Source of the DNA: Candidatus Rokuibacteriota bacterium
Lineage (GTDB): Bacteria; Methylomirabilota; Methylomirabilia; Rokubacteriales; CSP1-6
Reading direction: 5' to 3'
NCBI GenBank assembly: GCA_003221515.1
Contig: QHSI01000129.1
Span: 6,646 to 70,645 of the forward strand
DNA: 64,000 nucleotides
Shown: one piece after another, positions 29,756 to 64,000 of the stretch
How positions within the stretch are numbered: position 1 is the first letter of the stretch
Layout: each line of letters opens with the position of its first letter
Program-made: the position numbers and the translations under genes
Notes under the pieces: generated by a model
The model's input: only the letters and a program-made list of their open reading frames with translations
The model's database searches: none
What the model was told of the DNA's origin: nothing

Positions 29756-30883
<1,128 letters not shown>

Positions 30884-32029
30884 TCGGTCAGAATCTTGGC
30901 GCGGTTCACCGCCGCCCACTGGAAGTCGTTCTTGATCATGTGCTGCAGCATGTTGTCGGGGAGGAACTCGATGGGCTTGGACATCTTCGAGATCGCCACG
31001 ACCGCGTAACCCTCGTTGTAGAGCTTCATGGCCTTGTCGCTGACCGACCAGTCGAGCAGCGTCCTGGCGGATTCCAGGTTTTTGGTGCCCTTCACGATCG
31101 CCGTCGCTTCCATGTCCCAGCCCGAGCCCTCCGACGGGAACACGATGTCGATCGGCGCGCCCTGCCGCTTCTGCCGCGCCGCGCGGAACTCGAAGGACAC
31201 TCCGATCGGGTACTCGCCGGCGCCGGCCATCGTGCACGGCTTCGAGCCCGAGTGCGTGTAGACGCCGATGTTCTGGTGGAGCGCGTCCATGTACTTCCAG
31301 CCCTCGGCCTCGCCGAAGAGCTGGAGCCAGCTGGTGACGTCGAGGAAGCCGGTGCCGGACGACGCCGGGTTCGGCATCACGATCGTGCCCTTGTAGACCG
31401 GCTTGATCAGGTCCTTCCACGACGCGGGCTTCGGCAGGTTCTTCTTCTGCGCTTCCACCGTGTTGAAGCAGAGCGCCGCGACCCAGGCGTCCATGCCGAC
31501 CCACGCCGGCGGGTTGTCCTTGTCACGGAACTGGGTGTCGAGGCGCTCGAGCCCCTTCGGCGCGTACGGGACCAGCATGCCGTCGGGCTTCAGCACGAGG
31601 AGGCTCGTCGCGGCCAGGCCCCAGATCACGTCGGCCTGCGGGTTGGCTTTCTCGGCGAGGAGCTTGGCGGTGATGACGCCGGTCGAGTCACGGACCCACT
31701 TGATCTCGATGTCCGGATGGTCCTCGTTGAAGCGGGCCGCGTACTTCTTGAGATCGTCCGCCTCGACGGCCGTGTAGACGTTGAGCGTCGCCTTCGCCGC
31801 GCGGACGGTGGTGGAGGCGAAGCCGATCGCCGCCACGACGATCGCGACGCACACGAGAACGGCGCCGAGCCGGACGAGTGTCCCGTGAGCCATGAGGCCC
31901 TCCCTATCTACGCGCGCCTCGGTCGGCGGGACCCCAGCCCCGCGACGACCTGCGGCGCGCCCGACCATCGCGAGGTGGACGTGATTCTAGCCCAGACGCC
32001 CGCGCGTTGTCAGGGTCGCCGCCGAACCG

Positions 32030-32770
32030 TCACACCAGGCGATCCCGCAGCCGCGAGCTGGTCGCGTCGACGACCATCACCATCGCAACCGTGACCAGCA
32101 GCACCGTGGACGCCGCCGGATAGTCGATCAGCCGGAGATAGGTCTGCAGATAGAAGCCGATGCCGCCGGCGCCCACGAAGCCGAGCACGGTGGCGGCGCG
32201 GATGTTGGACTCGAGGCGATAGAGCACGTACGAGAGGAAGAGCGGCAGCACCTGCGGGATCACCGCGTACCTGAGTATTTGCAGACGCGTGGCGCCGGTG
32301 GCGGTGACGGCGTCGACGGGGCCGGGATCGATGCCTTCGACCGCCTCGGAGTAAAGCTTGGCGAGCGAGGTCGTCGTATACGCCACGACGGCGAGCACGC
32401 CGGGGAAGGGACCGAGGCCGACCGCCGCCACGAAGATCAGCGCGTAGACGAGCGTGTCCACGCTCCTCAGGAAATTGAGCACGGCGCGCGCGGGATAGAA
32501 GACGGCGCCGGGCGTCACGTTGCGCGCGGAGAGAAAGCCGAGCGGCAGCGCCAGGACCGCGGCCACCGCGGTGCCGAGCAGCGCGATCTCGACGGTCGTG
32601 AGCGCGCCGGCGAGCGCCGCCGGGAGCACGCGCAGGTCCGGCGGCATCATGCGCCGGATGAAGTCGAGGATCCACGGCACGCCGCGGGCCAGCCTCACCG
32701 GGTCGGCGCCGGTGTCCCAGACGAGCCACGCGAGAAGCACGAGGGCGGTGAAGATCGCCGCTCTGGTCAT
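32030..32770 (-). CDS. phnE: Phosphonate ABC permease
   Basis: AVGLGPFPGVLA, KLYSEAVE, YRLESNIRAATVLGFVGAGGIG. Confidence 0.9.
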   Translation of the reverse strand: MTRAAIFTALVLLAWLVWDTGADPVRLARGVPWILDFIRRMMPPDLRVLPAALAGALTTVEIALLGTAVAAVLALPLGFLSARNVTPGAVFYPARAVLNFLRSVDTLVYALIFVAAVGLGPFPGVLAVVAYTTTSLAKLYSEAVEGIDPGPVDAVTATGATRLQILRYAVIPQVLPLFLSYVLYRLESNIRAATVLGFVGAGGIGFYLQTYLRLIDYPAASTVLLVTVAMVMVVDATSSRLRDRLV

Positions 32771-32894
32771 TGGAGCGGAGCCCGTGAGGCCGCCTTGGTG
32801 CGAGGGTGGCCTGAGAGAGATGCGACCCGGCTCCGGTCGCCTGGTTTGGCCTCGGCGATTTGCGAGCCCGACGTGAGCCCAGTCGAGCTCGGCG

Positions 32895-33635
32895 TCACGG
32901 CCCGTCTCCGTAGATCATGCGCGCGACCGCTGGCGTGAGGGCTGACGGCGGGCCGTCGAAGGCCACGCGCCCCTGACGGAAGCCGACGATGCGCGTGGCG
33001 TAGGCCAGCGCGGTTTCCAGCTGGTGCTGGCTCACCACGAGCGTGAGGCCGTGCTCGACGTTGATCGCCTTGAGAATGTCCATGATGCTGCTGGTGAGCG
33101 AGGGATCCAGGCTCGCGGTGGGCTCGTCGGCCAGGACGACCGCGGGTCGCTGCGCGAGCGCGCGCGCGATCGCGACCCGCTGCTGCTCGCCGCCGGACAG
33201 CGTGTCGGCGCGGCGATCGGCGAAGTGCGCGAGCCCCACCTGAGCCAGGCACCCGAACGCCTGCTCGCGATCGGCGGCTGGAAAGCGGCCGAGCACGCTC
33301 GGCACCGCCGGCACGTAGCCGAGCCGTCCGGCCAGGACGTTCTCCAGCGCCGAGGCGCGGCGCACGAGGTTGAACTGCTGGAAGACCATGCCGATCTGCC
33401 GCCGGATCTCGCGCAGCTCCGCCGTCCCCGCGCCGGTGACGGCGCGGCCGGCGACGCGGATCGTGCCGGCGGTGGGCTCGACGAGACGGTTGAGCGAGCG
33501 GAGGAACGTGGTCTTGCCGGCGCCGCTGCGGCCGAGCACCGCGACGAATTCACCGCGGCCCACCACCAGGTCGACTCCATCGAGCGCCACGGTCGCCGGC
33601 GGCCGGACGACTCGCAGCCCCGCGACCTCGATCAT
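32895..33635 (-). CDS. phnC: Phosphonate ABC ATP-binding protein
   Basis: GRSGAGKTT, GMVFQQFNLV, NVLAGRLG, LSGGEQQRVAIARA, ADEPTASLDP. Confidence 0.9.
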   Translation of the reverse strand: MIEVAGLRVVRPPATVALDGVDLVVGRGEFVAVLGRSGAGKTTFLRSLNRLVEPTAGTIRVAGRAVTGAGTAELREIRRQIGMVFQQFNLVRRASALENVLAGRLGYVPAVPSVLGRFPAADREQAFGCLAQVGLAHFADRRADTLSGGEQQRVAIARALAQRPAVVLADEPTASLDPSLTSSIMDILKAINVEHGLTLVVSQHQLETALAYATRIVGFRQGRVAFDGPPSALTPAVARMIYGDGP

Positions 33636-33655
33636 CGCCCGCGGGTCGAGCGGAC

Positions 33656-34546
33656 TCAGCGCGGTCGGACGCCGAGCAGCTCGATCGCTGCGCGCACCGG
33701 ATCGTAGTCGCGGTCGTCGGCCGGCGCGAACCCGTCGATCTCGTAGAGGCGCTTGAGCAGCGCAGCGTAGGCGGGCGCGCGGATCTGCAGGAGAGCGGCC
33801 CGCACCTTCGCGAAGGTCGCCGCGTCGAGACCGTCGCGGGCGGCGATGCCGGCCTCGGGAATCTCCGGCGTCTCCGCGACGACAACGATGCGCTCGCGCT
33901 CGGCCGGATCGCTGAGATACTGCTCGCGCGCCATGTCGAACGAGGCCAGCGCGTCGACGTGGCTGTTGAGCAGCGCGCGCATGCCCGCGTCGTGCGCTCC
34001 GGCGAAGACCACCTCGCGGAAGAACGTCTTGGGGTCCCGGTTCTTCACGAGCCCGCGCTGGATCAGCAGCACCATCGGATAGATGTAACCCGACGAGCTC
34101 GCGGGATCGATGAACGCCATGGTCTTGCCGCGCAGCTCCTCCAGCGTTTTGAGCCCGGACTCGCGGCGCACGTAGATGCGCGAGGTGAAGGAGCTCTTGC
34201 CGTGCCAGAGGTTCCGCACCATGATCGTCGCCTTCGCCTCGCGACTCGCCAGCACGTAGCCGCCCGGATGGACGAACGCCAGATCGGCGGTGCGGTTGCG
34301 CAGCGCCTCGATCACCGCGGCGTAGTCCGACGCGACCGTCACCCGCACGGGAATGCCGGTGAGCGTGGTGATGACCTTGCCGAACTCGTCGCCGGTGGCC
34401 ATGAGGTCGGTGGGCTTCTGCGAGGGCGTGAGGACGAGGTGCAGCCCGTCGGCGCCGAAGGCCGGGCGCGCCGCTCCGAGCGACACGAGCGCGCACAGCG
34501 CGACGAGCCCGAGAATGCGTGGGATCACCGGCGGTGAGTGTACCAT
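33656..34546 (-). CDS. phnD: Phosphate/phosphite/phosphonate ABC substrate-binding protein
   Basis: ASDYAAVIEALR, FIDPASSSGYIYP, FAGAHDA, DRDYDPVR. Confidence 0.85.
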   Translation of the reverse strand: MVHSPPVIPRILGLVALCALVSLGAARPAFGADGLHLVLTPSQKPTDLMATGDEFGKVITTLTGIPVRVTVASDYAAVIEALRNRTADLAFVHPGGYVLASREAKATIMVRNLWHGKSSFTSRIYVRRESGLKTLEELRGKTMAFIDPASSSGYIYPMVLLIQRGLVKNRDPKTFFREVVFAGAHDAGMRALLNSHVDALASFDMAREQYLSDPAERERIVVVAETPEIPEAGIAARDGLDAATFAKVRAALLQIRAPAYAALLKRLYEIDGFAPADDRDYDPVRAAIELLGVRPR

Positions 34547-34619
34547 CGCCCGTAGTGTGCGCCGCAGGCCGTCGCGGGGCTGGGGCCCCGCCGGCGAGGC
34601 GCGGATACCAACGGAGGTC

Positions 34620-35327
34620 ATGAGCGTGCTCCGCCCCGGATTCATCTGGGCTCTGCTCCTCGTCGCCGCGGGCGCGGGCGGCGTCTATCTGGCGGACCGG
34701 CTCGTCCTGGCGCCGGGGCGCGAGCACCAGCGACAGATCGAGGAACGCGACGCGCAGATCCGCACCTTGACGGAGCGCAACCAGGCCCTCGAGGCGGCGG
34801 TGCGCCTGCTCCGGCACACCGAGCGGCGCGCGCGGCTCGTCGTGCTGGACCAGGCGCGCGGCCCCGACGGTCACGTGCGGACCCGCGTCCGGTTCACCGA
34901 GCTCGACTCCCAGGGCGACATCGTCGGCGAGCCGCGCGAGCTCACGCTCGAGGGCGACGAGGTGTACGTCGACGCGCTCGTGATCAAGTTCGAAGACAAC
35001 TTCGTGACCGCCGGCGACGCGCTCAAGGGCAAGGCGCTGCTCCTCTTCCGGCGAGTCTTCACCGATCGCCGCCGGCCCGCGGAAGGCGACGTGCTGGACC
35101 GGGAGGGGCAGATCCCGCAGAGCTACGCGGCCGAGCGGGCGCCAACCGCGTTCGAGCGCGAGCTCTGGGCGCGCTTCTGGGAGCTGGCCAACGATCCCGA
35201 CGAGGCTCGGCGGCGCGGCGTGCGGGCCCTGCACGGCGAGGCGGTCTCGACCCGGCTGCGCAAGGACCGTACCTACACGATCACGCTGCGCTCGACGGGC
35301 GAGCTGACGATCCTGCCGACTCAGTAA
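34620..35327 (+). CDS. Membrane-anchored hypothetical protein (TM, coiled coil, beta-rich domain)
   Basis: GGAGG RBS; EGDEVYVDALVIKF, LLFRRVF, WARFWELANDP; strong GC3 bias. Confidence 0.75.
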   Translation: MSVLRPGFIWALLLVAAGAGGVYLADRLVLAPGREHQRQIEERDAQIRTLTERNQALEAAVRLLRHTERRARLVVLDQARGPDGHVRTRVRFTELDSQGDIVGEPRELTLEGDEVYVDALVIKFEDNFVTAGDALKGKALLLFRRVFTDRRRPAEGDVLDREGQIPQSYAAERAPTAFERELWARFWELANDPDEARRRGVRALHGEAVSTRLRKDRTYTITLRSTGELTILPTQ

Positions 35328-35381
35328 CCCCCTTCCGGCCGCCTGGTCCTCCAGAATCCACCGCCGCTCTCTATAGGTATT

Positions 35382-35416
35382 TTCCGGATTTTCGAGATCG
35401 CCGACGTCGGGTAACG
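35382..35416 (+). promoter_or_regulatory. Repeated promoter-like motif, copy 1
   Basis: TTCCGGA-N20-GGGTAACG upstream of 35519. Confidence 0.55.
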
Positions 35417-35518
35417 TGGCGGTGGCCCAGGTGGGCCCGCTTCGGCGCAGAACGCGCCGGCATCGCCGCCCAGGCGTCGGTCGAGGGCGTAGCGACAACA
35501 ATTTCCGCGAGGGCCAGC

Positions 35519-35746
35519 GTGGCGCATTTCTATCTCATCGTGTCGCAGCAGGAGCCCAACCGGTATCCGTACTTCAAGCACGTGTACGCCAACGAGACCA
35601 TGGAAGTGATCCTCGACCGCCGCCTCGCGGAACGGCGCGAGAGGCAGGCGCGGCCCGCGAGCGAGCGGCGCCGCACGGACCGGCGCAGTCGGAACGTCTC
35701 GGACGCTCTCAAGCAGTACGGGTGGGTCCTCGCGCGGGGCAGGTGA
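35519..35746 (+). CDS. Small Arg-rich protein (EVILDRR...ERRRxDRR), paralog 1
   Basis: 75 aa; same motif and spacing as 36525..36815. Confidence 0.7.
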   Translation: MAHFYLIVSQQEPNRYPYFKHVYANETMEVILDRRLAERRERQARPASERRRTDRRSRNVSDALKQYGWVLARGR

Positions 35747-35804
35747 TCGGCTCCTCGTCGAGGCGGCTCGCCCCTATGGACCCTCAGTGATTCTCCATTT
35801 TCAA

Positions 35805-35839
35805 TTCCGGAAAACCGCGGATTGCCACACTGGGTTACG
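35805..35839 (+). promoter_or_regulatory. Repeated promoter-like motif, copy 2
   Basis: TTCCGGA-N20-GGGTTACG upstream of 35860. Confidence 0.55.
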
Positions 35840-35859
35840 GCCTGCTTTGCTGCGTCGCG

Positions 35860-36528
35860 ATGGCGGCCGTCGGTGGAGGTGTCGAAGGGCTCCGGGTTCT
35901 CGTCGTGGAGCCCAAGGACTTGCTCGCGGCCCGCCTGAAGGACCAGCTGGAGAGCCTGGGCCACCGAGTGCTGGCGCTGGCCAAGGATGGGCGGGAGGCG
36001 GTCGCGGCCGCCCACCGGTTGCGTCCGAACCTCATCCTGATGGAGACCGCGCTCGCCGGCATCGACGGCATCGACGCGGCGCGGGCGATCGTCAACGACG
36101 AGCCGGTTCCCATCATCCTCCTCATCGGTTATGCCGGCGCCGAGCTCGTCCGCCGGGCGAGGGAGGCGGGAGTCGTCGCGTACCTGACGTCCGTGGACCG
36201 GCGACGGCTCACCTCGACCATCGAAGTCGCGCTGGAGCGCTTCCGAGAGTACCAGCTGGTTCGGACGGAAGGGAGTGACCCGATCAAGGTGCTCGCGGCA
36301 CGAAGGGCCGTCGACCGTGCGACGATGGTGCTGACCACGCGGCTCCCTCTCTCCGAGGCCGAGGCCTTCCAGCACCTCCTCGACTGCAAGAAGAGCACGC
36401 GTCGAACCCTTCGCGAAACCGCATCGGCGGTCGTCGGGGCGGACTGGGTTCTCGGGCGGCCCGAGTTCGGCCCCGCCCTCCAGATGATTCTGTACACCAT
36501 TCGCCGGGGTCTGCGGCCCCCGCAATGA
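35860..36528 (+). CDS. REC-ANTAR (AmiR/NasT-like) regulator with degenerate receiver
   Basis: Receiver fold RVLVVEP...AKDGREAV...LILMET; ANTAR-like ARRAVDRATMVL...LSEAEAFQHL...LRETASAV. Confidence 0.75.
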   Translation: MAAVGGGVEGLRVLVVEPKDLLAARLKDQLESLGHRVLALAKDGREAVAAAHRLRPNLILMETALAGIDGIDAARAIVNDEPVPIILLIGYAGAELVRRAREAGVVAYLTSVDRRRLTSTIEVALERFREYQLVRTEGSDPIKVLAARRAVDRATMVLTTRLPLSEAEAFQHLLDCKKSTRRTLRETASAVVGADWVLGRPEFGPALQMILYTIRRGLRPPQ

Positions 36529-36815
36529 CGGAGTCGGCGCCGGGATTCCTCCTCCACGTCGTCCGAGTCGCCGATCGGCTGCACCACAATCCTGGCCGGA
36601 TGTTGCTCATCGTCCGCGGGCCGTACGCCCATCTCGAGGATCGATTGCGCCGACTGTTCGAAGGGCGTCAAGACGTCGTCGAGGTCATCCTCGATCGGCG
36701 CCGCGGTCAGCGACGTGCGCGCAGCCAGGCCGACCAGCCCGAGCGGCGGCGAGCCGACCGGCGCACGCCGAAGGAGGACATCCTGGAAATCGTCCTCGAA
36801 GGCAGCGGCGACTGA
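36525..36815 (+). CDS. Small Arg-rich protein (EVILDRR...ERRRxDRR), paralog 2
   Basis: ATGA overlap with the ANTAR gene; VEVILDRRRGQRR...ERRRADRR. Confidence 0.7.
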   Translation: MTESAPGFLLHVVRVADRLHHNPGRMLLIVRGPYAHLEDRLRRLFEGRQDVVEVILDRRRGQRRARSQADQPERRRADRRTPKEDILEIVLEGSGD

Positions 36816-36821
36816 TACCGA

Positions 36822-36854
36822 TTCCGGGAAACTCTGACGTGCTTGTACGGGATT
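36822..36854 (+). promoter_or_regulatory. Repeated promoter-like motif, copy 3 (EPS operon)
   Basis: TTCCGGG-N20-GGGATT, followed by the palindrome TCTCAATTGAGA (36856-36867). Confidence 0.5.
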
Positions 36855-36879
36855 GTCTCAATTGAGAGTCAGGTCGGCC

Positions 36880-36891
36880 CGCCGTAGCGTG
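36880..36891 (+). promoter_or_regulatory. ops/JUMPstart-like element
   Basis: CGCCGTAGCGTG is 10/12 identical to the E. coli ops GGCGGTAGCGTG and lies in the leader of a NusG-paralog-led polysaccharide operon. Confidence 0.4.
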
Positions 36892-37042
36892 TACGTATAG
36901 TCGCTCACGACGTAGCCGGGTTGTTCGCACACAGGAATAAATGAATAAATGAGCGATCGGTCTCGAGGGTGTGCTCGCCGATCGTGGAGCCTGGTTCAGC
37001 CCCGACGGGGCGGCAGAAACCAAAGGGGGCGAAGCCTATTCC

Positions 37043-37612
37043 ATGAACGCGTCGACAATCGAGTTGAACGCTTCCGCGGCGACGGTGACCGCGACCCTGG
37101 CGCTGTCGCCGACACCCGCGTGGCACGCCCTGTGGACGCGCAGCCATTGCGAGCAAATGGTCGTGGACCAGCTGGCGGCGAAGGGATTCGAGCTGTTTCT
37201 GCCGAGGGTCGGCCGTTGGGCACGGCACGGTGATGTCAGGCGCCGCATCGTGGTTCCGATGTTCCCGGGGTACGTCTTCCTGCACGGGAGGGTCGACAAG
37301 GTGGCGTATCTCGAAATCGTCAAGACGCGCGGGCTGGCGCAGATTCTCGGCGAGCGCTGGGACCGGCTGGCGACGATCGATGTCAGGGAGATTGAGGCGC
37401 TCCGGAGGATCGTCGCCGTCAAGGCGCCGGCCCTACCGTACGCCTACTTGCGGGCAGGCCAGCGCATCCGGATCACGCGGGGCCCGCTGGCCGAGCTCGA
37501 GGGCATTCTCGTCCGCGCCAAGGAGAATCGGGGTCTGCTAGTGGTGGCCGTCGAGCTCCTTCGGTGCGGTGTCGCAGTGCAAGTGGACTGCACGTCGGTG
37601 ACGCCTCTCTGA
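37043..37612 (+). CDS. NusG paralog / transcription antiterminator (UpxY/LoaP/RfaH-like)
   Basis: WHALWTRSHCE, FLP...VPMFPGYVF (NGN); GQRIRITRGPLAELEG (KOW); first gene of the EPS operon. Confidence 0.85.
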   Translation: MNASTIELNASAATVTATLALSPTPAWHALWTRSHCEQMVVDQLAAKGFELFLPRVGRWARHGDVRRRIVVPMFPGYVFLHGRVDKVAYLEIVKTRGLAQILGERWDRLATIDVREIEALRRIVAVKAPALPYAYLRAGQRIRITRGPLAELEGILVRAKENRGLLVVAVELLRCGVAVQVDCTSVTPL

Positions 37613-37614
37613 GC

Positions 37615-39156
37615 GTGTCCGTGGGAGAGCACCCTTCCTTGATATCCGCCACCGTGGCGGGGGTGTGGGGCCGGCGAAGGACGCTCGCGCTCGCCGTTTT
37701 CGCCACGGCTCTCGCCGGCACCCTGACTCTCGCGGCGGCGCTCCCCGGCGTCTACCGCGCCACGGCAACCGTGTTGGTGGAGCGCCAGGACATGCCGGGA
37801 GCGTTCGCGCGGGCCGCGATCACGGGAGACCTCGAAGCCCGGCTGCACCGGATCGGGCAGGAAATCCTGAGCCGGGCGCGACTCGCGATGCTCATGGACC
37901 ACTTCGATCTCTACCCCGAGCTGCGGTCAGCCGGCGCGCTCGAGGCGGCGGTCGACAGGATGCGGCGCGATATCCAGGTCGAGCTCAAGGGTGTCGTCGA
38001 GCCGGTGGCCGGGCGGGGGACGACGGTCGCTTTCACGGTGAGCTTCCGTGGCCGCGATCCGGAGGCGGTGGCGCGCGTCGCGAACGCCGTGACGTCCTTC
38101 TACGTCGAGGAGAACGTCAAGATCCGCGAACGGCAGGCCGCCGACGCCGCCAAGACCCTGAACGACCAGCTCGAGGAGGCGCAGCAGAAGCTGCGGGACC
38201 AGGAGCGCCGGATCAACGCGTTCAAGTGGCGTCACCTCGGCCAGCTCCCCGAGCAGGTGACGTCGAACCTGTCGACGCTCACGCAGCTGAACACCCAGCT
38301 CGGGATCAACAACAGCAGCCAGACCCGCGTCCTCGAACGGCGTGACGCCCTCTCCCGGCGACTCGACGGCGGGGGGACGTCCGCCGAGGCCAAGGGCGAG
38401 GAGGCGCCGGGTGCGCGTCTGGCCCGCCTGAAGCAGGATCTGATTCGAATGCGAAAGCTCTTTAGCGACAAATATCCGGACGTCGTCGCGCTGGAGGCGG
38501 AGATCGCGGCACTCGAGCTACCGGCGGCGGGCGCCGACGGCACGCCGCCCGAGCACACCATCGCCGGAATCAGGAAATCACTGACCGATCTGGACGCCGA
38601 GATGAGCGCGCTGAAGGACGAGGAAAAACGGCTGCGGCGCGACCTTGTCACGTATCAGCGTCGGATCGAAGCCGCGCCGGAGCGAGACCTGGAGCTGCAG
38701 GAGATGTCGCGTGACTACCGGACGACGCAGGAGCTCTACGACACCACGCTCAAGCGCGTTCAGGCGGAGAGCATGGAGCGCCGTCGGACCGGCGAGGAGT
38801 TCCGGATCCTGGATCCGGCGGTGACGCCCCGCCAGCCGGTGGCGCCGAACCGCCTCCGTATGGTCCTCGTCGGCCTGATGCTGGCGCTCGGGGGCGCCAC
38901 CGTCGCGGTGGTGCTGGCCGAGCACATCGACACGTCGTTCCACACGCTCGACGATTTGCGGGCGTTCACCAAGGTGCCCGTGCTGGCCAGCGTTCCGCGC
39001 ATCGTACGGGCGACCGACACGGCGAGGCAGGCGCGCCAGCGCTGGCTGGCGGCGGCCTTGATCACGCTCGGACTCGTGCTCATCGTCGTGGTGCTCCATC
39101 GGCTCGCCGCGGGGAACTACTTTCTGGTGGAGGCGCTCTTGCGAGGCGCGTCGTGA
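37615..39156 (+). CDS. Polysaccharide chain-length determinant (Wzc N-terminal/GumC-like)
   Basis: YRATATVLVE, ILSRARL, YSDKYPD-like FSDKYPDVVAL, coiled coils, FRILDPAVTP...PNR, two TMs; GTG start uncertain. Confidence 0.85.
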   Translation: MSVGEHPSLISATVAGVWGRRRTLALAVFATALAGTLTLAAALPGVYRATATVLVERQDMPGAFARAAITGDLEARLHRIGQEILSRARLAMLMDHFDLYPELRSAGALEAAVDRMRRDIQVELKGVVEPVAGRGTTVAFTVSFRGRDPEAVARVANAVTSFYVEENVKIRERQAADAAKTLNDQLEEAQQKLRDQERRINAFKWRHLGQLPEQVTSNLSTLTQLNTQLGINNSSQTRVLERRDALSRRLDGGGTSAEAKGEEAPGARLARLKQDLIRMRKLFSDKYPDVVALEAEIAALELPAAGADGTPPEHTIAGIRKSLTDLDAEMSALKDEEKRLRRDLVTYQRRIEAAPERDLELQEMSRDYRTTQELYDTTLKRVQAESMERRRTGEEFRILDPAVTPRQPVAPNRLRMVLVGLMLALGGATVAVVLAEHIDTSFHTLDDLRAFTKVPVLASVPRIVRATDTARQARQRWLAAALITLGLVLIVVVLHRLAAGNYFLVEALLRGAS

Positions 39157-39166
39157 GGCAGGACCA

Positions 39167-40066
39167 ATGTATCTGAGCTTCTACGGCCTCGCCGAGCGCC
39201 CGTTCAACACGACGCCGGACCCAAGGTTTCTGTATCTCACACGGGGACACCGGGAGGCGCTGGCGCAGCTCGTGTACAGCGTGCGTGAGAATCGCGGCTT
39301 CCTGGTGTTGACCGGCGAAGTCGGAACCGGCAAGACCACGCTGCTCCAGGCACTCCTCGAGCGGCTCGACGGCAAGACCGCCGCCGCGTACGTGTCCACT
39401 TCCACGCTCTCATTCCACGGCTTGCTCGAGTACACCCTGGAGGAGCTGGGCGTCCCGGCGCCGAAGGCGACACCGGCCCAGCGTCTCCTCGCCCTCCGGC
39501 GCGTCCTCATCGACCGTCGGCGCGCGGGCCAGGGCACCGTGCTGATCCTCGACGAGGCCCAGAACTTCGGGATGGCGACGCTCGAGCAGATCCGGCTGCT
39601 GTCGAACTTCGAGACGCGAACGGACAAGCTGCTCCAGATCCTGCTCGTGGGCCAGCCGGAGCTCAGGGCCAAGCTCGACCGTCGCGAGCTCAGGCAGCTT
39701 CGCCAGCGGGTGGAGCTGCAGTGCAATATCAACGCGTTGTCGTCCGAGGAGGTCAGTCACTACATCCAGACTCGCCTACGGGTCGCCGGCTCGCGCGACG
39801 GCGATCTGTTCAGCGATCAGGCCCGGGCCCAGATCGCCGCGTACTCTCGGGGAATCCCTCGACGTATCAATGTGCTCTGTGACCACTGTCTCGTCATCGG
39901 CCTGGCCGAACAGCGGCGGCGGATCGAGGTCGATATCGTCGCCGAGGCGATCGAGTCGGTCGACCCGGTCCGCCGCGGCCTGCCCCGGCTCACGAGGTCG
40001 GCGCGGCTCGACACCACGCATCTCCGGACGCTCGTGCGTCAGATGCGGGAGCTCGTCCTCCGATGA
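39167..40066 (+). CDS. ExeA-like AAA ATPase (PEP-CTERM/EPS-locus-associated type)
   Basis: FYGLAERPF...PDPRFLY, GEVGTGKTT, LILDEAQN, LLVGQPEL, GIPRRINVLCD. Confidence 0.85.
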   Translation: MYLSFYGLAERPFNTTPDPRFLYLTRGHREALAQLVYSVRENRGFLVLTGEVGTGKTTLLQALLERLDGKTAAAYVSTSTLSFHGLLEYTLEELGVPAPKATPAQRLLALRRVLIDRRRAGQGTVLILDEAQNFGMATLEQIRLLSNFETRTDKLLQILLVGQPELRAKLDRRELRQLRQRVELQCNINALSSEEVSHYIQTRLRVAGSRDGDLFSDQARAQIAAYSRGIPRRINVLCDHCLVIGLAEQRRRIEVDIVAEAIESVDPVRRGLPRLTRSARLDTTHLRTLVRQMRELVLR

Positions 40067-40929
40067 GCAAATTCTTCGAGGCTCTCCAGCGAGCCGAGCG
40101 GTCAGCGACTCCTTCCGTGCCGGCTCCAGCCTCCGCCGAGCCCCCGCCGATGATGGAGCCGCGCCTCCCGCCGCCAGCCTTGGCCCCTCGCCCCGCGGTA
40201 GCCGCGTCTCTGCGCTCTGCGAGCGTCGAGTTGCATCTCGTCAGCCTGCTCGAGCCCGCGTCGTTCGAAGCGGAAGAGTATCGCGTGCTCCGCCACGCCG
40301 TGGAGACGCTGCACAAGGACGCCCACCTCCAGATCGTGTCGGTCACGAGCCCGGGCATGGGCGACGGCAAAACCACGACCGCGATCAACCTCGCAGGGGC
40401 CCTCGCGCAGTCCACCGACGCGCGCGTCCTGCTGGTGGACATCGACCTTCGCCGGCCGGCGGTGGCGCGGCACCTCGGGCTCGCCCACTCCAAGCGCTGT
40501 CTACTGGACGCGCTCCTGGATCCGGGCGTCAAGCTTGAGGACACGGTGGAGCATATTGCGCGATTCAACCTCTCGGTGCTGCCGGCCGGCGGGCCCGAGG
40601 CCGTCCCGTACGAGATCCTGACGTCGCCCAGACTGGAGGAGTTGCTCAACGAAGCGCGGCGGCGTTACGACTTCGTCGTGCTCGACGCGCCGCCATTCGT
40701 CCCCGTCCCTGACTGCCGGCTGCTCACGAAGTGTGTCGACGGATTCGTGGTCGTGGTCGCGACACATCGGACTCCGCGCGGCATGCTGGCGGAGACGCTG
40801 AACCTCATCGATCCGGCGAAGTTGGCGGGCCTTGTGTTCAACGGCGACGTCGCCCCCCGCTCCAGCTATTACCGCGTAGCGGAGCCGACTCCTGTCGCTC
40901 GTTGGCGCCGTCCGTGGAGGAGCCCGTGA
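40063..40929 (+). CDS. CpsD/CapB family bacterial tyrosine kinase
   Basis: EAEEYRVLR, SPGMGDGKTT, LLVDIDLRRP, VVLDAPP, GLVFN, C-terminal YY. Confidence 0.85.
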   Translation: MSKFFEALQRAERSATPSVPAPASAEPPPMMEPRLPPPALAPRPAVAASLRSASVELHLVSLLEPASFEAEEYRVLRHAVETLHKDAHLQIVSVTSPGMGDGKTTTAINLAGALAQSTDARVLLVDIDLRRPAVARHLGLAHSKRCLLDALLDPGVKLEDTVEHIARFNLSVLPAGGPEAVPYEILTSPRLEELLNEARRRYDFVVLDAPPFVPVPDCRLLTKCVDGFVVVVATHRTPRGMLAETLNLIDPAKLAGLVFNGDVAPRSSYYRVAEPTPVARWRRPWRSP

Positions 40930-41003
40930 ACATCGTCGCGCTGGGCGGCGGCACCGGGCTGCCGGTCGTGCTCACCGGGTTGCGTCGCTACTCGCTCGGC
41001 TGA
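40926..41003 (+). pseudogene. N-terminal remnant of a YvcK/CofD-like (UDP-sugar-binding) gene
   Basis: GTGA overlap; MNIVALGGGTGLPVVLTGLRRYSLG-stop resembles the YvcK GGGTG N-terminus. Confidence 0.6.
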
Positions 41004-41012
41004 AGTTTACTC

Positions 41013-42146
41013 ATGGAGAGACTTGTCGTCATCGTCGGCTTCTTGATCGGGCTGCGCGCCACGTGGCGGGGCGGCGGACGCGGCGGTCCCGAGCGCGTGC
41101 TGCTCCTGGGGACCGGCTCGCTAGCGCGCGCGATCGTCAAGGAGATCGAGCGGCAGCCGGAGCCGCGGTGCACCGTCGCCGGCGTGGTCGGTGATGCGCC
41201 CCCCGCGCCTGGGTGGCTGTCGAACTGTCCGCATCTGGGAACGCTCGAGGACATCGGTCGCCTCATCGAGGAAACCCGTCCCGATCGCATCGTCGTGGCG
41301 CTCTCCGAGAGGCGGGGGCGCCTGCCGATTTGCCGCCTGCTCGAGTCAAGGGCACGCGGAATCGTGGTCGAGGACGGCGCCGATACCCTCGAGCGCCTGA
41401 CCGGGAAGCTCGCCCTCGAGACGGTCCCGCCGAGCAGCCTCATCTTCTCTCGCGAGTTCGCGAAGTCCCGCGGGCAGCTGGCCCTGGCGCGAGCGCTCAG
41501 CGTTTTAATGGCGGTGGTCGGACTGATCGTGCTGGCCCCCGTCTTCGGCCTCGTCGCGCTGCTCGTCAAGGTGGGCTCAGGGGGCCCGGTGTTCTTCGTT
41601 CAGGAGCGCGTGGGATGGTTGGGGCGGCCGTTTAAGCTGATCAAGTTCCGCACCATGGACCCGATCCAACGACCGAGCTCCGAGTGGGTGCGTGACAACA
41701 CCGATCGGATCACCCGGGTCGGCCGGTGGCTCCGGAGATGCCGGCTCGATGAGCTGCCCCAGCTCGTGAACGTCCTCCGAGGCGACATGAACCTCGTCGG
41801 CCCGCGACCGCATCCGGTGACGAACTTCCAGCTCCTGATGCTGACGGCACGAAACATGAGCGAACGATCCGGCGAAGCGATCCCGTACTACTCGTTGCGC
41901 TGCGCGATCCGGCCGGGCATCACCGGGTGGGCGCAGGTCCGCTACGGATACGCCAACTCGCTCGAGGAAGAGCTCGAGAAGATCGGGTACGACCTGTACT
42001 ACATCAAGCACATGTCGCTCTGGCTGGACCTTCGCGTCGTCTTCGAGACGGCCAGGACGATGTTCTCGGGCCGCGGCTCGAGCACGGCGGACGCGGCGAG
42101 CGCCCGTGAGGGTCGACTCGAAGAGCCCGCCGGGCGGGCGGCCTGA
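41013..42146 (+). CDS. Priming polyprenyl glycosylphosphotransferase (bacterial sugar transferase)
   Basis: FKLIKFRTM, RITRVGRWLR, LDELPQL, GDMNLVGPRP, RPGITGWAQV, DLYYIKHMSLWLD. Confidence 0.9.
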   Translation: MERLVVIVGFLIGLRATWRGGGRGGPERVLLLGTGSLARAIVKEIERQPEPRCTVAGVVGDAPPAPGWLSNCPHLGTLEDIGRLIEETRPDRIVVALSERRGRLPICRLLESRARGIVVEDGADTLERLTGKLALETVPPSSLIFSREFAKSRGQLALARALSVLMAVVGLIVLAPVFGLVALLVKVGSGGPVFFVQERVGWLGRPFKLIKFRTMDPIQRPSSEWVRDNTDRITRVGRWLRRCRLDELPQLVNVLRGDMNLVGPRPHPVTNFQLLMLTARNMSERSGEAIPYYSLRCAIRPGITGWAQVRYGYANSLEEELEKIGYDLYYIKHMSLWLDLRVVFETARTMFSGRGSSTADAASAREGRLEEPAGRAA

Positions 42147-42153
42147 CGGCAAC

Positions 42154-42477
42154 ATGATCGAGGCGACGCTGATCACCGCCATCCAGAGCCGGACCGCGCG
42201 GGTGGGCGTGATCGGCCAGGGCTACGTCGGTCTCCCGCTCGCGGCCGAGTTCGTTCGCGCGGGATTCTCCGTCACGGGCCTGGACACCGACCTTGAGGCG
42301 GCCGACGGCGTGCTGATCCTGACCGATCATCCCGTGGTCGACTACCGGCACGTCGTGGAAGGTGCCCGGCTGGTGGTGGACACGGGCAACGTGACCTGGG
42401 GCATGCGTGTCGGCGGGCCGGGTCGTCCGGCCGTAGATCGCGTCACTGTGGAGTTGCGGCGACGGGCCGCACACTGA
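42154..42477 (+). pseudogene. Nucleotide-sugar dehydrogenase (WecC/WbpA-like) with most of the gene deleted in frame
   Basis: N-terminal VGVIGQGYVGLPLA...VTGLDTD is joined directly to C-terminal ADGVLILTDH...VVDTGN; 107 aa versus about 430 aa typical. Confidence 0.75.
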
Positions 42478-42479
42478 TC

Positions 42480-43850
42480 ATGACATCGAGCTACCGACTC
42501 CATCGCGCTCACGACGAGACCTGGTGGCGTGCCACTCCCCCGGTCGACGTGCGGAATCTCTCCGACGTCACCGAGAGCGTGCCGCCTTCCAGAGACGGGA
42601 GCTCGATCCCGTTCTGGGCCCTCATGAGCTTCTCGTTCATCCTGCTGGTTGCGCCGCAGGAGCTGTTTCCATCGCTGGCGCCACTGCGCATCGCGCTGGT
42701 GGCGGCGTCGCTTGCCATCATCGTGTATCTGAGCGATCGGTTGGTCCGCCGGCAGCGGCTCACGCTCCTCACGCGCGAGATCGGGCTGACGGCCGCGCTC
42801 GCCGGGTGGGCGATCATGACAATCCCGCTGTCCGTCTGGCCCGGTGGCAGCGTCGCCTTCGTTCTCGGGTTCTACCTCAAGTCGCTGGCCGTCTTCTGGC
42901 TGCTCAGCAACGTGGTGGATACCTCGAAGCGGCTCTACCAGGTCTTCTGGGGGCTCTGCCTGATGGCCCTTCCCGTGGCCGGAACCGCGGTCGTGCACTT
43001 CCTCTCGGCGTCGTTCCTTCCGGGGCTCGCCGCCCAGTTCCCGAAGCGCATCGTCGGCTACGACGCCCCGCTCACGGGGAACCCCAACGACCTCGCCCTC
43101 ATGCTCAACATGCTCATCCCGCTAGGCGTCGCGCTCTTCCTGGGCGCACGACGCCTGGCGCTCCGGATCATGCTTCTCGCCGTGATCGCGCTCGACGTCC
43201 TTGCGGTGATCCTCACGTTCTCGCGCGGCGGGTTCCTGACCCTGGCGACGATCGGCGGGATCTATCTCTGGAAGCTCCGGAGGCGACCGGAGCGCGTGTG
43301 GGCGTGGACGGCGCTCGTTCTGGCGATCGCCTGCCTGCCCCTTCTGCCGTCCGGATACACCGACCGCCTCGCGACCATTACGAATCTCGACTCGGACGTC
43401 ACCCGCTCGGCGCGGCTCAGGTGGGACGACACCTTCACCGCGATCCGGTTCGTCGTCGCCAACCCGATCGTGGGCGGCGGCGTCGGAATGAACGCGCTGG
43501 CCCTCAACCACGAGCGGGGTTTCGGCTGGAGCGCGATCCACAACGTGTACCTCGAGTACGCCGTCGAGCTGGGTCTCCCGGGCTTCGTCCTCTTCGTTCT
43601 ACTGCTGGGCGCGTCCATCAAATCCGTGATGGAGGTGCACCGGGGTTCCGCCCGGGTCCCGGGTGCGCGCGACTTGTTCTTGCTCGCCGAAGGGATCCAG
43701 ATCAGCCTGGTGGCGTTCGCGGTGGCGGCGTTCTTCCACCCGGTGGCCTATCACCTCTACTTCTATTACTTCGCAGCGCTGGCGGTCGCCGTCCGAAGCG
43801 TGTGGGCGGACCACGAGCGCGCCGCGGTCTCCCGCGATCGACAAGGCTGA
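42480..43850 (+). CDS. O-antigen ligase/Wzy-like polymerase
   Basis: About 11 TMs; GNPNDLA, LTFSRGGFL, NPIVGGG, HNVYLEYAVELGLPG. Confidence 0.8.
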   Translation: MTSSYRLHRAHDETWWRATPPVDVRNLSDVTESVPPSRDGSSIPFWALMSFSFILLVAPQELFPSLAPLRIALVAASLAIIVYLSDRLVRRQRLTLLTREIGLTAALAGWAIMTIPLSVWPGGSVAFVLGFYLKSLAVFWLLSNVVDTSKRLYQVFWGLCLMALPVAGTAVVHFLSASFLPGLAAQFPKRIVGYDAPLTGNPNDLALMLNMLIPLGVALFLGARRLALRIMLLAVIALDVLAVILTFSRGGFLTLATIGGIYLWKLRRRPERVWAWTALVLAIACLPLLPSGYTDRLATITNLDSDVTRSARLRWDDTFTAIRFVVANPIVGGGVGMNALALNHERGFGWSAIHNVYLEYAVELGLPGFVLFVLLLGASIKSVMEVHRGSARVPGARDLFLLAEGIQISLVAFAVAAFFHPVAYHLYFYYFAALAVAVRSVWADHERAAVSRDRQG

Positions 43851-43860
43851 AGAGCGGACG

Positions 43861-44901
43861 ATGCAGAACCGCCCGAGCGCCTCGTCGATCGAAATCTTCT
43901 CCACGTGCCCGCCGTGGAGCGGAGGCGACGGGCGGACGTACCTCGACGCCGTCGTCGTCGCGGCCCACTGGAGCGAAGCGGCGGGCTGCCGGGGGATGCT
44001 GGTCTACGCCGACAACGCGCAGGTCGATCCGTGGCTCGTCACGCACACGATCGTCCAGCAGACGACGTCGCTGTCTCCGCTCGTGGCGGTCCAGCCGGTG
44101 TACATGCACCCCTATTCGGTCGCGAAGCTGGTCACCTCGATCGGACACCTCTACCGCCGGCGCCTGTACCTCAACATGGTGGCGGGCGGCTTCAAGAACG
44201 ACTTGACGGCCCTGCACGACACCGCACCCCACGACCGACGCTACGACCGGCTCGGCGAGTACACGACCATCGTTCAGCGGCTTCTCGGCAGCTCCGCGCC
44301 GGTGACCTACGCGGGCGAGTTCTACACGGTGACCCTCCTCAAGCTGACGCCGCCGCTGGACGGGAGCCTGTTCCCGGGCATCTTCGTGTCGGGCTCGTCC
44401 GAGGCGGGCCTGGTGACCGCGCGGGCGCTCGGCGCCACCGCAATCGAATACCCGAAGCCCGCCAGTGAGTACGCGGCCGCCGCGCCCGACGGGGTCACGA
44501 GTGCCGGGATCCGCGTGGGCGTCATCAGCCGCGAGCGCGACGACGAAGCCTGGGAGGTCGCCAACGCCCGCTTCCCCGAGGACCGGAGAGGGCAGCTCTC
44601 CCACCAGCTCGCGATGAAGGTGTCGGACTCGGTCTGGCACAAGCAGCTGTCGAAGCTGAGCGACCTCGGCGCGCGGAGCCCCTACTGGCTCGTCCCGTTT
44701 CAGAACTACAAGACCATGTGTCCCTATCTGGTCGGCAGTCACGATCGGGTCGGGGATGAGCTTGCCACGTATCTCGAGGTCGGCTACCGGACCTTCATTC
44801 TGGACGTGCCGGTCAGCCTCGAGGATCTCCAGCACACCATGCGCGCCTTTCGACGGGCGCTCGAGACAGCACGATGCCAGAGCTACTCCACGAGTGGGTG
44901 A
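43861..44901 (+). CDS. LLM-class flavin-dependent monooxygenase (SsuD-like)
   Basis: PLVAVQPVYMHP, RLYLNMVAGG, IFVSGSS, LVGSHDRV. Confidence 0.8.
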   Translation: MQNRPSASSIEIFSTCPPWSGGDGRTYLDAVVVAAHWSEAAGCRGMLVYADNAQVDPWLVTHTIVQQTTSLSPLVAVQPVYMHPYSVAKLVTSIGHLYRRRLYLNMVAGGFKNDLTALHDTAPHDRRYDRLGEYTTIVQRLLGSSAPVTYAGEFYTVTLLKLTPPLDGSLFPGIFVSGSSEAGLVTARALGATAIEYPKPASEYAAAAPDGVTSAGIRVGVISRERDDEAWEVANARFPEDRRGQLSHQLAMKVSDSVWHKQLSKLSDLGARSPYWLVPFQNYKTMCPYLVGSHDRVGDELATYLEVGYRTFILDVPVSLEDLQHTMRAFRRALETARCQSYSTSG

Positions 44902-46487
44902 GCCGTCAGGCGCGCCGGCGGCCTGATGCGGTCGCCGTTGTCGGCGAGCGCGAGACGCTCACCTATGCCCAGCTGGAATCTCTGTCCAACCGGCTCGCGC
45001 GGATACTGAAGCGGGGCGGCTGCCGGCGGGGCGAGCGCGTTGCGCTGCTCATGCCCAAGTCGCCGACGGCGATCGTCAGCCTGCTCGGAATCTACAAGGC
45101 CGACTGCGTCTACGTGCCGCTCGATCCGGCAAGTCCGCCGCGCCGCCTGGCGAAGATCCTCGAGGCATGTGACAGCGCCTGGCTCCTCGCGGGCGGGCCG
45201 GTCACGGATCTGCTCGCTGCGCTCGTCGACGACGACCGGTCGGTGGGTTCGATCGCGGTCGGATGGATGGACGCGAAGCCATTGCACGTGGGCCCCTTCG
45301 GCGGCGGTGGCTTCGGACTCGGCGATCTCCAGAGCTGCTCGGACGATCCGCTCGAGTACGAGAACACCCGTCACGATCCGGCGCACATCCTGTTCACCTC
45401 GGGCTCGACCGGGATTCCCAAGGGTGTCGTCATCACGCACGACAACGTGATCCATTTCGTCGGCTGGGCGACGACCTACTTCGGCATGGACTCGTCGGAG
45501 CGCGCGTCGGCGCACGCCCCGCTCAACTTCGACCTGTCGGTGTTCGACATCTTCGGCACCTTCGCCGTCGGCGGGCGGCTGCACCTGGTGCCGCCGGAGC
45601 TCAATCTCCTTCCCAATCAGCTGGCCGAGTTCGTCCGGCACGCGGAGCTGACGCAGTGGTTCTCGGTCCCGTCGGTGCTGAACTACCTGGCCAAGTTCGA
45701 CGTGGTGAGGCGCGGCGACTTTCCGACCCTGCGGCGCGTCCTCTGGTGCGGCGACGTCCTGCCCACGCCGTCGCTGATGTACTGGATGGAGCGGCTGCCC
45801 CACGTGCGCTTCACGAATCTCTACGGTCCGACCGAAGCGACCATCGCCAGTAGCTACTACACGGTTCCCGGATGCCCGCCCGATCCGCACGCGCCGATCC
45901 CGATCGGCGTCGCCTGCGACGGAGAGGAGCTCCTCGTTCTCGACGCGTCGATGGAGCCGGTCCTGCCCGGCGAGGCGGGGGAATTGTGGATCGGCGGCGT
46001 GGGGCTCAGCCCCGGCTACTGGCGCGATCCCGCCAGGACCGCGGAGGCGTTCCGGCCTCATCCGAGCCGTGCGAAGGCGCCCGGGCGGATCTACCGGACC
46101 GGCGATCTCGCCAGGGTCGGCGACGACGGGCTCGTGTACTTCCTCGGGCGCACGGACTCCCAAATCAAGAGCCGCGGCTATCGCATCGAGCTCGGCGAGA
46201 TCGAGGCGGCGCTCAACGCGCTCGCCGGGCTACAGGAGTGCGCAGTCGTCGCGATTCCCTCCGGAGGATTCGAGGGCACGACGATCTGTTGTGCCTACGT
46301 CCCCGCGCCCGGCGCGGCCCTCACGCCGGCAGCGCTCCGGCGCGAGCTGAGCAACGCGGTGCCGCCGTACATGCTGCCGGCCCGCTGGCGGGCGTTCGAT
46401 CGCTTTCCTCGGAACGCCAACGGCAAGACCGATCGGCGCCGTCTCAAGGAGGTCTTCGAGGCCAATGCAACTGAAGCCAATCGATAG
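44874..46487 (+). CDS. Stand-alone amino acid adenylation enzyme (DltA-like)
   Basis: LFTSGSTGIPKG, NFDLSVFD, VLWCGDVLP, NLYGPTE, YRTGD, QIKSRGYRIELGEIE, NGKTDR; no C or TE domain. Confidence 0.85.
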   Translation: MPELLHEWVSRQARRRPDAVAVVGERETLTYAQLESLSNRLARILKRGGCRRGERVALLMPKSPTAIVSLLGIYKADCVYVPLDPASPPRRLAKILEACDSAWLLAGGPVTDLLAALVDDDRSVGSIAVGWMDAKPLHVGPFGGGGFGLGDLQSCSDDPLEYENTRHDPAHILFTSGSTGIPKGVVITHDNVIHFVGWATTYFGMDSSERASAHAPLNFDLSVFDIFGTFAVGGRLHLVPPELNLLPNQLAEFVRHAELTQWFSVPSVLNYLAKFDVVRRGDFPTLRRVLWCGDVLPTPSLMYWMERLPHVRFTNLYGPTEATIASSYYTVPGCPPDPHAPIPIGVACDGEELLVLDASMEPVLPGEAGELWIGGVGLSPGYWRDPARTAEAFRPHPSRAKAPGRIYRTGDLARVGDDGLVYFLGRTDSQIKSRGYRIELGEIEAALNALAGLQECAVVAIPSGGFEGTTICCAYVPAPGAALTPAALRRELSNAVPPYMLPARWRAFDRFPRNANGKTDRRRLKEVFEANATEANR

Positions 46488-63968: not shown

Positions 63969-64000
63969 TGCTGAACGCGCTGACGATCGACGTCGAAGAC
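63968..64000 (+). CDS. Partial: XrtA/PEP-CTERM-type polysaccharide deacetylase (DUF3473-associated)
   Basis: TGATG overlap; MLNALTIDVED is the characteristic N-terminus; runs off the window. Confidence 0.7.
   Translation, partial: MLNALTIDVED

Follow-up and report, generated by a model that had tools for sequence, protein, structure and literature searches.

A conserved hairpin and GCGAAGC element upstream of a NusG-paralog gene in a Rokubacteria-like bacterium: a candidate opsX-type loading site before an exopolysaccharide operon

How does a specialised NusG paralog find the operon that it serves? Such paralogs switch on long, costly operons (capsules, exopolysaccharides, antibiotics), and to our knowledge their target finding is known only for Escherichia coli RfaH, Bacteroides UpxY (the UpxY, or Y, of Bacteroides fragilis reportedly being the subject of Chatzidaki-Livanis in 2009) and Bacillus LoaP. 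The question is raised here by a window of 64,000 nucleotides, the whole stretch of DNA that was analysed, from a high-GC, Rokubacteria-like, uncultivated soil bacterium whose nearest public gene relatives are metagenome-assembled genomes (MAGs) of Candidatus Rokubacteria. In this window a gene for a NusG-family paralog stands first in an exopolysaccharide (EPS) operon, and a first-pass annotation had placed recruitment of the paralog at a leader motif resembling the E. coli ops element (36880-36891). A conserved hairpin followed by a GCGAAGC signal, missed by that annotation, was found 145 bases beyond the motif, in an element (36985-37042) that ends directly before the ATG of the paralog gene. 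By analogy with known systems, we lean towards reading this element as a composite loading and pause site of the opsX/ops type for the UpxY-like paralog encoded just downstream, with 36993-37037 as the candidate loading site. The parts of the element and the gene that follows it are listed below.

36993 to 37021, plus strand: conserved RNA hairpin, candidate pause hairpin, with stems P1 (36993-36997/37017-37021) and P2 (36999-37003/37007-37011), from the covariance model R1.
37025 to 37036, plus strand: near-invariant 12-mer GGGGGCGAAGCC, exact or with one mismatch in most related loci.
37029 to 37035, plus strand: GCGAAGC, a GCGNAGC mini-hairpin and candidate recognition element on the non-template strand, near-invariant among about 66 distinct elements.
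37043 to 37612, plus strand: NusG-family paralog gene (189 aa, Pfam NGN), first in the EPS operon.

A search of the 64-kb window with R1 gave one match only (36985-37042, 44.5 bits, E 3e-8). At E<0.01 the model matched about 79 of 162 sources, with exactly one match in each locus, invariably in sense orientation and upstream of the paralog. The paralogs of the matched loci are only 50-70% identical, and the 12-mer is exact or one base off in these loci while its flanks diverge; R1 gave no match in loci with a paralog of less than 50% identity. The 10-mer GGGCGAAGCC occurred 79 times in sense and 0 times in antisense orientation in 752 kb of loci, with 77 of the occurrences upstream of the paralog. 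Immediately in front of the start codon, the relatives have the string GAACC-RAA-GGGGGCGAAGCC in common, with GGTTC and a variable hairpin on its 5' side.

Individual folding of the homologues resulted in one architecture, consisting of P1 (GGTTC/GAACC) around P2 (variable, 4-7 bp), J2, a linker and the 12-mer. In a structure-based alignment of 18 diverse sequences, pairing reached 99% and six pairs were changed on both sides. The count of six pairs is weak alone, because 20 of 500 shuffles reached it; the covariation score and the number of changed cells were reached by 0 of 500. This alignment was N-padded and fitted to the structure, the 100% pairing of P2 arising partly by construction, and two independent checks were therefore made. 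Over 66 distinct homologous sequences, the mean minimum free energy (MFE) z-score of P1-P2 was -2.0, with two thirds of the sequences below -1.5, and compensatory changes in P1 (C-G to G-C or U-A) were visible in a purely sequence-based alignment. Compensatory changes were also found in five P2 pairs. These data indicate that P1-P2 is a real structure. RNAalifold on a MAFFT alignment returned the invariant mini-hairpin alone, because P2 is misaligned by sequence; R1's own alignment of P2 was likewise poor and was left out of the pair counts. The P1-P2 interior ranges from 13 to 26 nt across the homologues; neither these lengths nor those of P2 keep to multiples of three, which marks the region as non-coding. 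The loops of P2 vary (GAC, GAAA, GAGAG, AAAAAA and others), and the loop of P3 is GAA.

Two further observations were made on the sequence of the element. Sites of the CsrA type were considered and rejected by eye, as no GGA is conserved. Three loci from MAGs labelled as Gammaproteobacteria (L008:2900-2935, L009 and L010), undetected by R1, have a P1 variant GGTTAA/TTAACC and the 12-mer GGGGGCTACGCC directly before the ATG; the GGC/GCC stem is kept, the GAA loop is changed to TAC, and an upstream GGCGTAG could pair with CTACGCC.

The distance between the 12-mer and the start codon is not fixed. The start codon follows after 0 nt in the group 2 loci (TTG) and after 6 nt in group 1 and in the window (ATG), and in group 3 it lies about 100 nt away, with the G-run replaced by GAAGGC...GCCTTC and GCGAAGC kept. 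In two loci (L127:1921-2307 and L130:1903-2286) the element and the paralog gene are held apart by an additional gene of about 128 aa, resembling the 'four-helix-bundle / 23S rRNA intervening-sequence protein' type, so that the element is separable from the start codon. In three others (L011, L150 and L156) a NarL-type regulator gene precedes the paralog, and its 5' end coincides in part with the 12-mer. The element occurs with upstream regulators of the ANTAR or the NarL type alike, its sole constant partner being the NusG paralog. The sequence comparison thus indicates that the element is more than a ribosome-binding site, since its distance to the start codon varies; the G-run of GGGGGCGAAGCC is likely a Shine-Dalgarno (SD) sequence.

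The protein encoded downstream is a specialised NusG-family factor with NGN and KOW domains, UpxY being the closest of the known families. The NGN domain was identified at residues 26-121 (Pfam PF02357, E 6.7e-12). For the KOW region, Pfam reported no KOW match at E<0.01; phmmer aligned residues 61-186 of the paralog to residues 52-178 of E. coli NusG, and the AlphaFold2 model (pLDDT 83.6) consists of an NGN domain and a beta KOW, with five beta strands in 130-188 and no sign of an autoinhibited alpha KOW form. The best PDB match of the model in Foldseek was 8f5g ('NusG-RNA complex'), followed by NusG and RfaH (all at prob 1.00); we take 8f5g to be the LoaP-RNA complex. Among the NusG-type models of NCBIfam the best was UpxY (NF033644, 85.3 bits), the scores for the others being, with their cutoffs, 62.2/125 for LoaP, 56.5/144.5 for RfaH and 31.8/135.7 for NusG. 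The gene is adjacent to a long dedicated operon instead of lying in a secE-nusG-rplK context, which together with the NGN and KOW domains fits a specialised paralog.

The homologue length of about 190 aa, together with the non-coding pattern of insertions and deletions in the element, indicates ATG 37043 as the start. The identical public protein record, P0006, has 213 aa, starts at GTG 36971 and spans the conserved element; the database start is thus probably 24 codons too long, hiding the element within a reading frame. One contig (L135:671-1378 and 2375-2998) carries a pair of NusG-paralog genes in a stretch of 2.4 kb, and the element precedes only the first.

The arrangement found here has a counterpart in Bacteroides, where UpxY factors load at opsX pause sites in the leader by means of a pause hairpin in the nascent RNA and a hairpin in the non-template DNA (ntDNA); the ntDNA hairpin has the consensus YGCGNAGCR with its key base at -6, shares its GCG..AGC stems with the E. 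coli ops GCGGTAGC, and the Y start codon is found at +9, +25, +41 or +111 in opsX loci (Saba et al. 2024, PMC11685472). In both cases a polysaccharide operon begins with the paralog gene, and the site is placed just upstream of it, here in the predicted leader. An RNA hairpin, here with covariation, precedes a GCG-N-AGC core with its loop base at -6, the start codon follows within a few to tens of nucleotides, and UpxY is the best NCBIfam match of our paralog. With A37032 set at -6 in the ops/opsX register, the predicted pause falls on T37037, the G at -10 is invariant and the base at -1 is C or T in 33 of 33 distinct variants. The ATG begins at +6 from this predicted pause, an arrangement resembling class-2 opsX. 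On the other hand, the present site belongs to another phylum (Rokubacteria/Methylomirabilota) and to an XrtA/PEP-CTERM polymer system, with no UpxZ-like second gene; it has one core across many species, where the Bacteroides sites are locus-specific variants, and it overlaps the G-run of the SD sequence.

The element also resembles the ops site of E. coli RfaH (GGCGGTAGnnTG, with the ntDNA hairpin GCGGTAGC) in its GCG..AGC stems closed by a G.A pair on the non-template strand, in the G at -10 and the pyrimidine at -1, in its predicted leader position and in the long polysaccharide operons that are the (here presumed) targets. It differs from ops in having a loop of one base (GCGAAGC) instead of two and an upstream RNA hairpin, a part absent from ops. 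The gene for the factor lies in cis, where RfaH has a stand-alone gene, and the KOW of the factor is predicted to be beta. The heptamer d(GCGAAGC) is a classic DNA mini-hairpin of extraordinary stability (Tm 76.5 C), built from two G-C pairs and a sheared G.A (PMC13037366).

The following features lie upstream of the element.

36862 to 36867, plus strand: predicted -35 hexamer TTGAGA, the right half of a palindrome; TTGAG is invariant in 19 aligned loci.
36885 to 36890, plus strand: predicted -10 hexamer TAGCGT, core of the ops-like 12-mer; pattern T-A-n-n-G-T in 19 loci.
36954 to 36984, plus strand: leader hairpin H1, from folds; basal stem conserved, apical stem and loop variable.

In the mechanism that we propose, transcription would start near 36897, from the sigma-70-type promoter formed by TTGAGA (36862-36867) and TAGCGT (36885-36890), and RNA polymerase would transcribe H1 and then the P1-P2 hairpin (36993-37021). 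About 16 nt later the polymerase would stand at GGGGGCGAAGCC, with the 3' end of the transcript near T37037, exposing GCGAAGC on the non-template strand. The heptamer may then fold as a GCGNAGC mini-hairpin with two G-C pairs, a sheared G.A (G37031/A37033) and a looped-out base at -6 (A37032). In the paused complex this mini-hairpin would be bound by the NGN domain, on the model of RfaH at ops and of class-1 UpxY at opsX, single-stranded GGGGGCGAAGCCT being the candidate DNA ligand of the paralog. Once loaded, the paralog would displace housekeeping NusG and allow the polymerase to move processively along the whole operon (more than 25 kb). Positive feedback would result because the paralog is the first gene. 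The 12-mer's G-run, 0-6 nt before the start, is also the likely ribosome-binding site, for which reason loading of the factor may be coupled to that of the first ribosome. The present data show how the element is conserved, its strand bias, structure and position, the promoter alignment and the NusG-family fold; within this scheme, we infer the pausing, the recognition of DNA rather than RNA, and the antitermination. The element itself lies downstream of the predicted promoter and is covered by low-depth metatranscriptome contigs that may include DNA or read-through.

Several results weigh against an opsX-type site. The window's own P1 has only 4 pairs (z = -1.0). For the mini-hairpin, covariation beyond its three invariant pairs was not significant, and nearest-neighbour DNA folding was uninformative (-1.5 kcal/mol, z = -0.5). 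The base of the RNA hairpin is at -17 from the predicted pause, which is beyond class-1 opsX (-12 to -9) and near class 2 (-14) and PSG (-16); the base at +1 is not G, and the mini-hairpin is flanked by G...C where opsX has Y...R. The UpxY score of the paralog (85.3 bits) is below the NF033644 cutoff of 100, and the best fold match being a 'NusG-RNA complex' leaves room for recognition of RNA. Furthermore, no enrichment of GCGN(N)AGC was observed upstream or downstream of paralogs with less than 50% identity.

Among those more distant loci, single cases were noted after the paralog stop codon. Two loci of Rhodobacterales (L061 and L065) have a hairpin and an exact GCGGTAGC about 100-118 nt after the stop, a Clostridiales MAG (L076) has a hairpin and GCGAAGC at 72 nt, and two Acidobacteriaceae loci (L039/L041) have a hairpin and GCGCAGC at 63 nt. 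We find L061, L065 and L076 convincing as single cases despite the lack of statistical enrichment.

An alternative that we regard as rather unlikely is that the element acts as RNA. The P1-P2 and GGC-GAA-GCC hairpins would bind a protein (perhaps the paralog, in the manner of LoaP) or switch between folds, and would either control access to the G-run and translation or recruit the paralog via the nascent RNA. LoaP provides the precedent, being recruited by a leader RNA hairpin with a UNCG loop in the Bacillus velezensis dfn/mln leader (PMC12691694), and our locus shares with it a NusG paralog beside a long target operon, a small leader hairpin and the fold match to 8f5g. Most loci offer no plausible SD sequence other than the G-run, with the start codon 0-6 nt further on. 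The C/U-rich 5' strand of P2 has two possible partners, the 3' strand of P2 and the G-run, and in the MFE folds of several relatives the G-run is paired to pyrimidine tracts lying upstream. However, the groups do not share this upstream anti-SD pairing, and in group 3 GCGAAGC is kept in elements that lack the G-run, about 100 nt or a whole open reading frame (ORF) before the start. Moreover, the invariance of a 7-mer that fits exactly the DNA mini-hairpin and the opsX consensus would be an unexplained coincidence. The LoaP leader hairpin as such was rejected as the identity of the element: it has no UNCG tetraloop, no intrinsic terminator follows it, its core fits the DNA mini-hairpin consensus, and terminator-like sites within the operon were at or below shuffle expectation.

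We consider it improbable that the element is nothing more than a strong ribosome-binding region retained through common ancestry, near which a hairpin happens to lie, and that it serves no particular factor. In favour of this explanation, the loci are related by phylogeny and most have the G-run at SD distance. Against it, 10-12 nt are invariant while the adjoining leader and the protein diverge by 30-50%, P2 covaries, GCGAAGC is kept where no start codon follows, and the CGAAGCC tail is needed by no SD sequence.

The genes around the element bear on the circuit proposed by the first-pass annotation, in which an ANTAR regulator and the NusG paralog would act in layers on the leader. They are arranged as follows.

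35519 to 35746, plus strand: gene for a 75-aa Arg-rich protein (translation, repeat families D1/D2).
35860 to 36528, plus strand: REC-ANTAR response-regulator gene (Pfam Response_reg E 5.6e-14, ANTAR E 9.1e-08).
36525 to 36815, plus strand: gene for a 96-aa Arg-rich small protein, paralog of 35519-35746 (translation, repeat families D1/D2, tblastn synteny).
Spacer of 227 nt between the 96-aa gene and the NusG paralog gene, from the plus-strand gene order.
37564 to 64000, plus strand: XrtA/PEP-CTERM exopolysaccharide genes, the presumed target operon (NCBIfam; ORFs unbroken to the window end).

The annotation had correctly named the NusG paralog downstream and its place at the head of an EPS operon. 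The array is of the XrtA/PEP-CTERM type and a REC-ANTAR gene lies upstream, these genes being matched by Pfam or NCBIfam models. The array was recognised by TIGR03007, TIGR03015, TIGR03018, TIGR03013/03025 and TIGR03097, and it contains genes for a chain-length determinant, an ATPase, a tyrosine kinase, a priming sugar transferase and an O-antigen-ligase-like protein, among others; its plus-strand ORFs are co-directional for more than 25 kb, up to position 64000 where the window ends. About 25 related loci have the REC-ANTAR gene in synteny upstream of the paralog and others lack it; the gene is lineage-specific. The 96-aa gene and the ANTAR stop codon overlap in an ATGA, and the two genes are translationally coupled.

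The two small proteins, which flank the ANTAR gene, gave no Pfam or NCBIfam match; they have in common the Arg-rich segment EVILDRR...ERR...DRR. The 96-aa gene is kept upstream of the paralog in about 25 loci, with its C-terminal half replaced in about half of them. In three group 2 loci (L124:723-2289, L146:477-1800 and L147:105-1698) two tandem genes for NarL/FixJ-type regulators replace the ANTAR module upstream of the element, and the same loci have a conserved GGGTGATTTTGCGCG...CGCGAACTATCTT block, by its appearance a promoter/operator of these genes. The leaders of ANTAR-containing relatives (L083:1290-1412, L094:2200-2442 and similar ones) include decayed 3' fragments of glmS, with remnants of ...DVDQP.NLAKSVTVE*. 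These fragments end in hairpin H1, which also follows intact glmS in loci of the L001 type (L001:2700-2960). To judge by these sequences, glmS and the EPS operon were apparently separated by an insertion that brought in the regulatory module and left the end of glmS duplicated.

Four leader features had been described in the first-pass annotation, and all of them are present at the coordinates given there, most at chance level or unconserved. The palindrome TCTCAATTGAGA is found at 36856-36867, in a window with 68 perfect 12-nt palindromes (about one per kb). The ops-like 12-mer CGCCGTAGCGTG (36880-36891) matches ops at 10 of 12 positions, with G4 replaced by C, but matches with up to two mismatches are at chance frequency, numbering 17 in the window and 14.0 ± 3.5 in shuffles. 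The tandem (GAATAAAT)x2 is present at 36935-36950 and is unconserved, being single-copy in the closest relative. The hairpin at 36954-36984 has the hexaloop GGTGTG, but its z-score alone is -1.6 and only its basal stem is conserved. The leader before the paralog is indeed conserved and structured; as a whole it folds no better than shuffled sequence (z = -0.4). In that closest relative, L161, the paralog is 84% identical and the gene order is the same; the locus keeps the 12-mer CGCCGTAGCGTG identical and the right half of the palindrome, and lacks the left half, the second GAATAAAT copy and the hexaloop. The palindrome was seen in one other locus only, L098. The AT-rich repeat region near 36940 is length-variable (GC 46% vs 69% in the window), and a metatranscriptome contig of a close strain lacks 4 nt at 36940, in the tandem GAATAAAT region, and has T36874G in the promoter spacer.

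The spacers of about 25 more distant loci with the ANTAR and small-protein genes hold a block homologous to 36834-36911, from which a 19-sequence alignment was made. In this alignment TTGAG is invariant and is followed by 17-18 variable bases and then by T-A-n-n-G-T-G, with the -10 variants TAGCGT, TAGGGT, TACGGT and TAAGGT; the A and GTG are invariant and the T nearly so. The positions matching G8 and C9 of ops vary (position 8 is G, C or A), and ops position 4 also varies and is never G. The ops-like 12-mer, by this alignment, reads as a sigma-70-type -10 box with TTGAG as its -35, and a transcription start is predicted near 36897. An RfaH ops element lies in the transcribed leader and has, besides its hairpin, a conserved G5 and T6. 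Identity of 36880-36891 with such an element was consequently rejected, given its chance frequency, the unkept hairpin positions C3:G8 and G4.A7 and the fixed -10-type positions; the site claimed for recruitment of the NusG paralog behaves as a -10 hexamer in 19 related loci. The palindrome arises because TCTC-AA precedes TTGAGA. A consensus promoter and terminator scan of 35500-38000 found nothing, TAGCGT being missed because the -10 rule of the scan needs 4/6 matches. The predicted start would leave the palindrome and the 12-mer upstream of the transcript, a position that the first-pass annotation had itself named as counter-evidence. Low-depth metatranscriptome contigs start at 36827 (upstream of the predicted promoter), 36940 and 36944, and none covers 36434-36826. 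They indicate that leader and gene are transcribed, the position of the start not being fixed by contigs that may include DNA or read-through.

As to the ANTAR layer, H1 consists of the stem CGATCGG/CCGATCG, a bulge TCT, the apical stem CGAG/CTCG and the hexaloop GGTGTG. Its basal stem GCGRTCGG/CCGAYCGC is conserved, with a compensatory change from G-C to A-T between the window and group 1 loci, whereas the apical stem and the loop change between loci and the relatives have mostly triloops. The hairpin is also present directly behind intact glmS in L001, a locus that has no ANTAR gene. ANTAR targets consist of two adjacent hairpins that overlap a terminator, each with a hexaloop having A1 and G4, and a scan of 35300-37100 found no tandem hairpins with such loops. 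No terminator-like site was found in the leader, and an Rfam scan of 30000-45000 with E up to 10 gave no leader match, and in particular none to JUMPstart or an ANTAR-type family. An ANTAR target RNA was rejected for H1, as the single hexaloop GGUGUG begins with G, the loop is unconserved, and neither a dual hexaloop nor a terminator is present. The likeness to ANTAR systems (EutV, NasR and AmiR, with dual-hexaloop targets) lies in the REC-ANTAR gene immediately upstream, syntenic in part of the clade; the difference is that the leader has neither tandem A1/G4 hexaloop hairpins nor a terminator, and the conserved element is found equally in loci without ANTAR. Lacking dual hexaloop, terminator and Rfam match, the antitermination layer attributed to ANTAR finds its support in the gene neighbourhood only.

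The circuit of pausing and paralog recruitment at CGCCGTAGCGTG (36880-36891), with ANTAR acting on the 36954-36984 hexaloop as a second layer, is accordingly very improbable: the identity of the 12-mer in L161, the contig beginning at 36827 upstream of it, the synteny of the ANTAR gene in about 25 loci and the conserved basal stem of H1 agree with it, but the ops match is at chance level within a -10-box pattern placed 17-18 nt from TTGAG in 19 loci, the hexaloop is single, starts with G instead of A and gives way to triloops in relatives, H1 occurs without ANTAR nearby, and neither a U-tract terminator after H1 nor an Rfam match was found. What stands of that interpretation is the specialised paralog heading a long EPS operon and the plausibility of an ops-type element in its leader; the ops site it named and the ANTAR layer do not.

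The principle of an opsX-type loading site is known from Bacteroides and E. coli, and, judged from sequence, the phylum would be new; the literature that was searched contained no paper linking PEP-CTERM/XrtA systems with NusG paralogs. The promoter alignment also provides an example of an ordinary promoter box that, in GC-rich DNA, happens to match 'ops' at 10 of 12 positions. If the reading of the element as an opsX-type loading site is true, the ops/opsX principle would be extended to a distant lineage and to XrtA/PEP-CTERM systems. The element is compact and testable (45 nt), and its recognition probably corrects the public gene start that includes it. As a tentative and bolder possibility, one type of signal may serve RfaH in Proteobacteria, UpxY in Bacteroidota and the paralog in Rokubacteria, fused in the last case to the ribosome-binding site, so that 12 nt would load both the factor and the first ribosome of PEP-CTERM operons.

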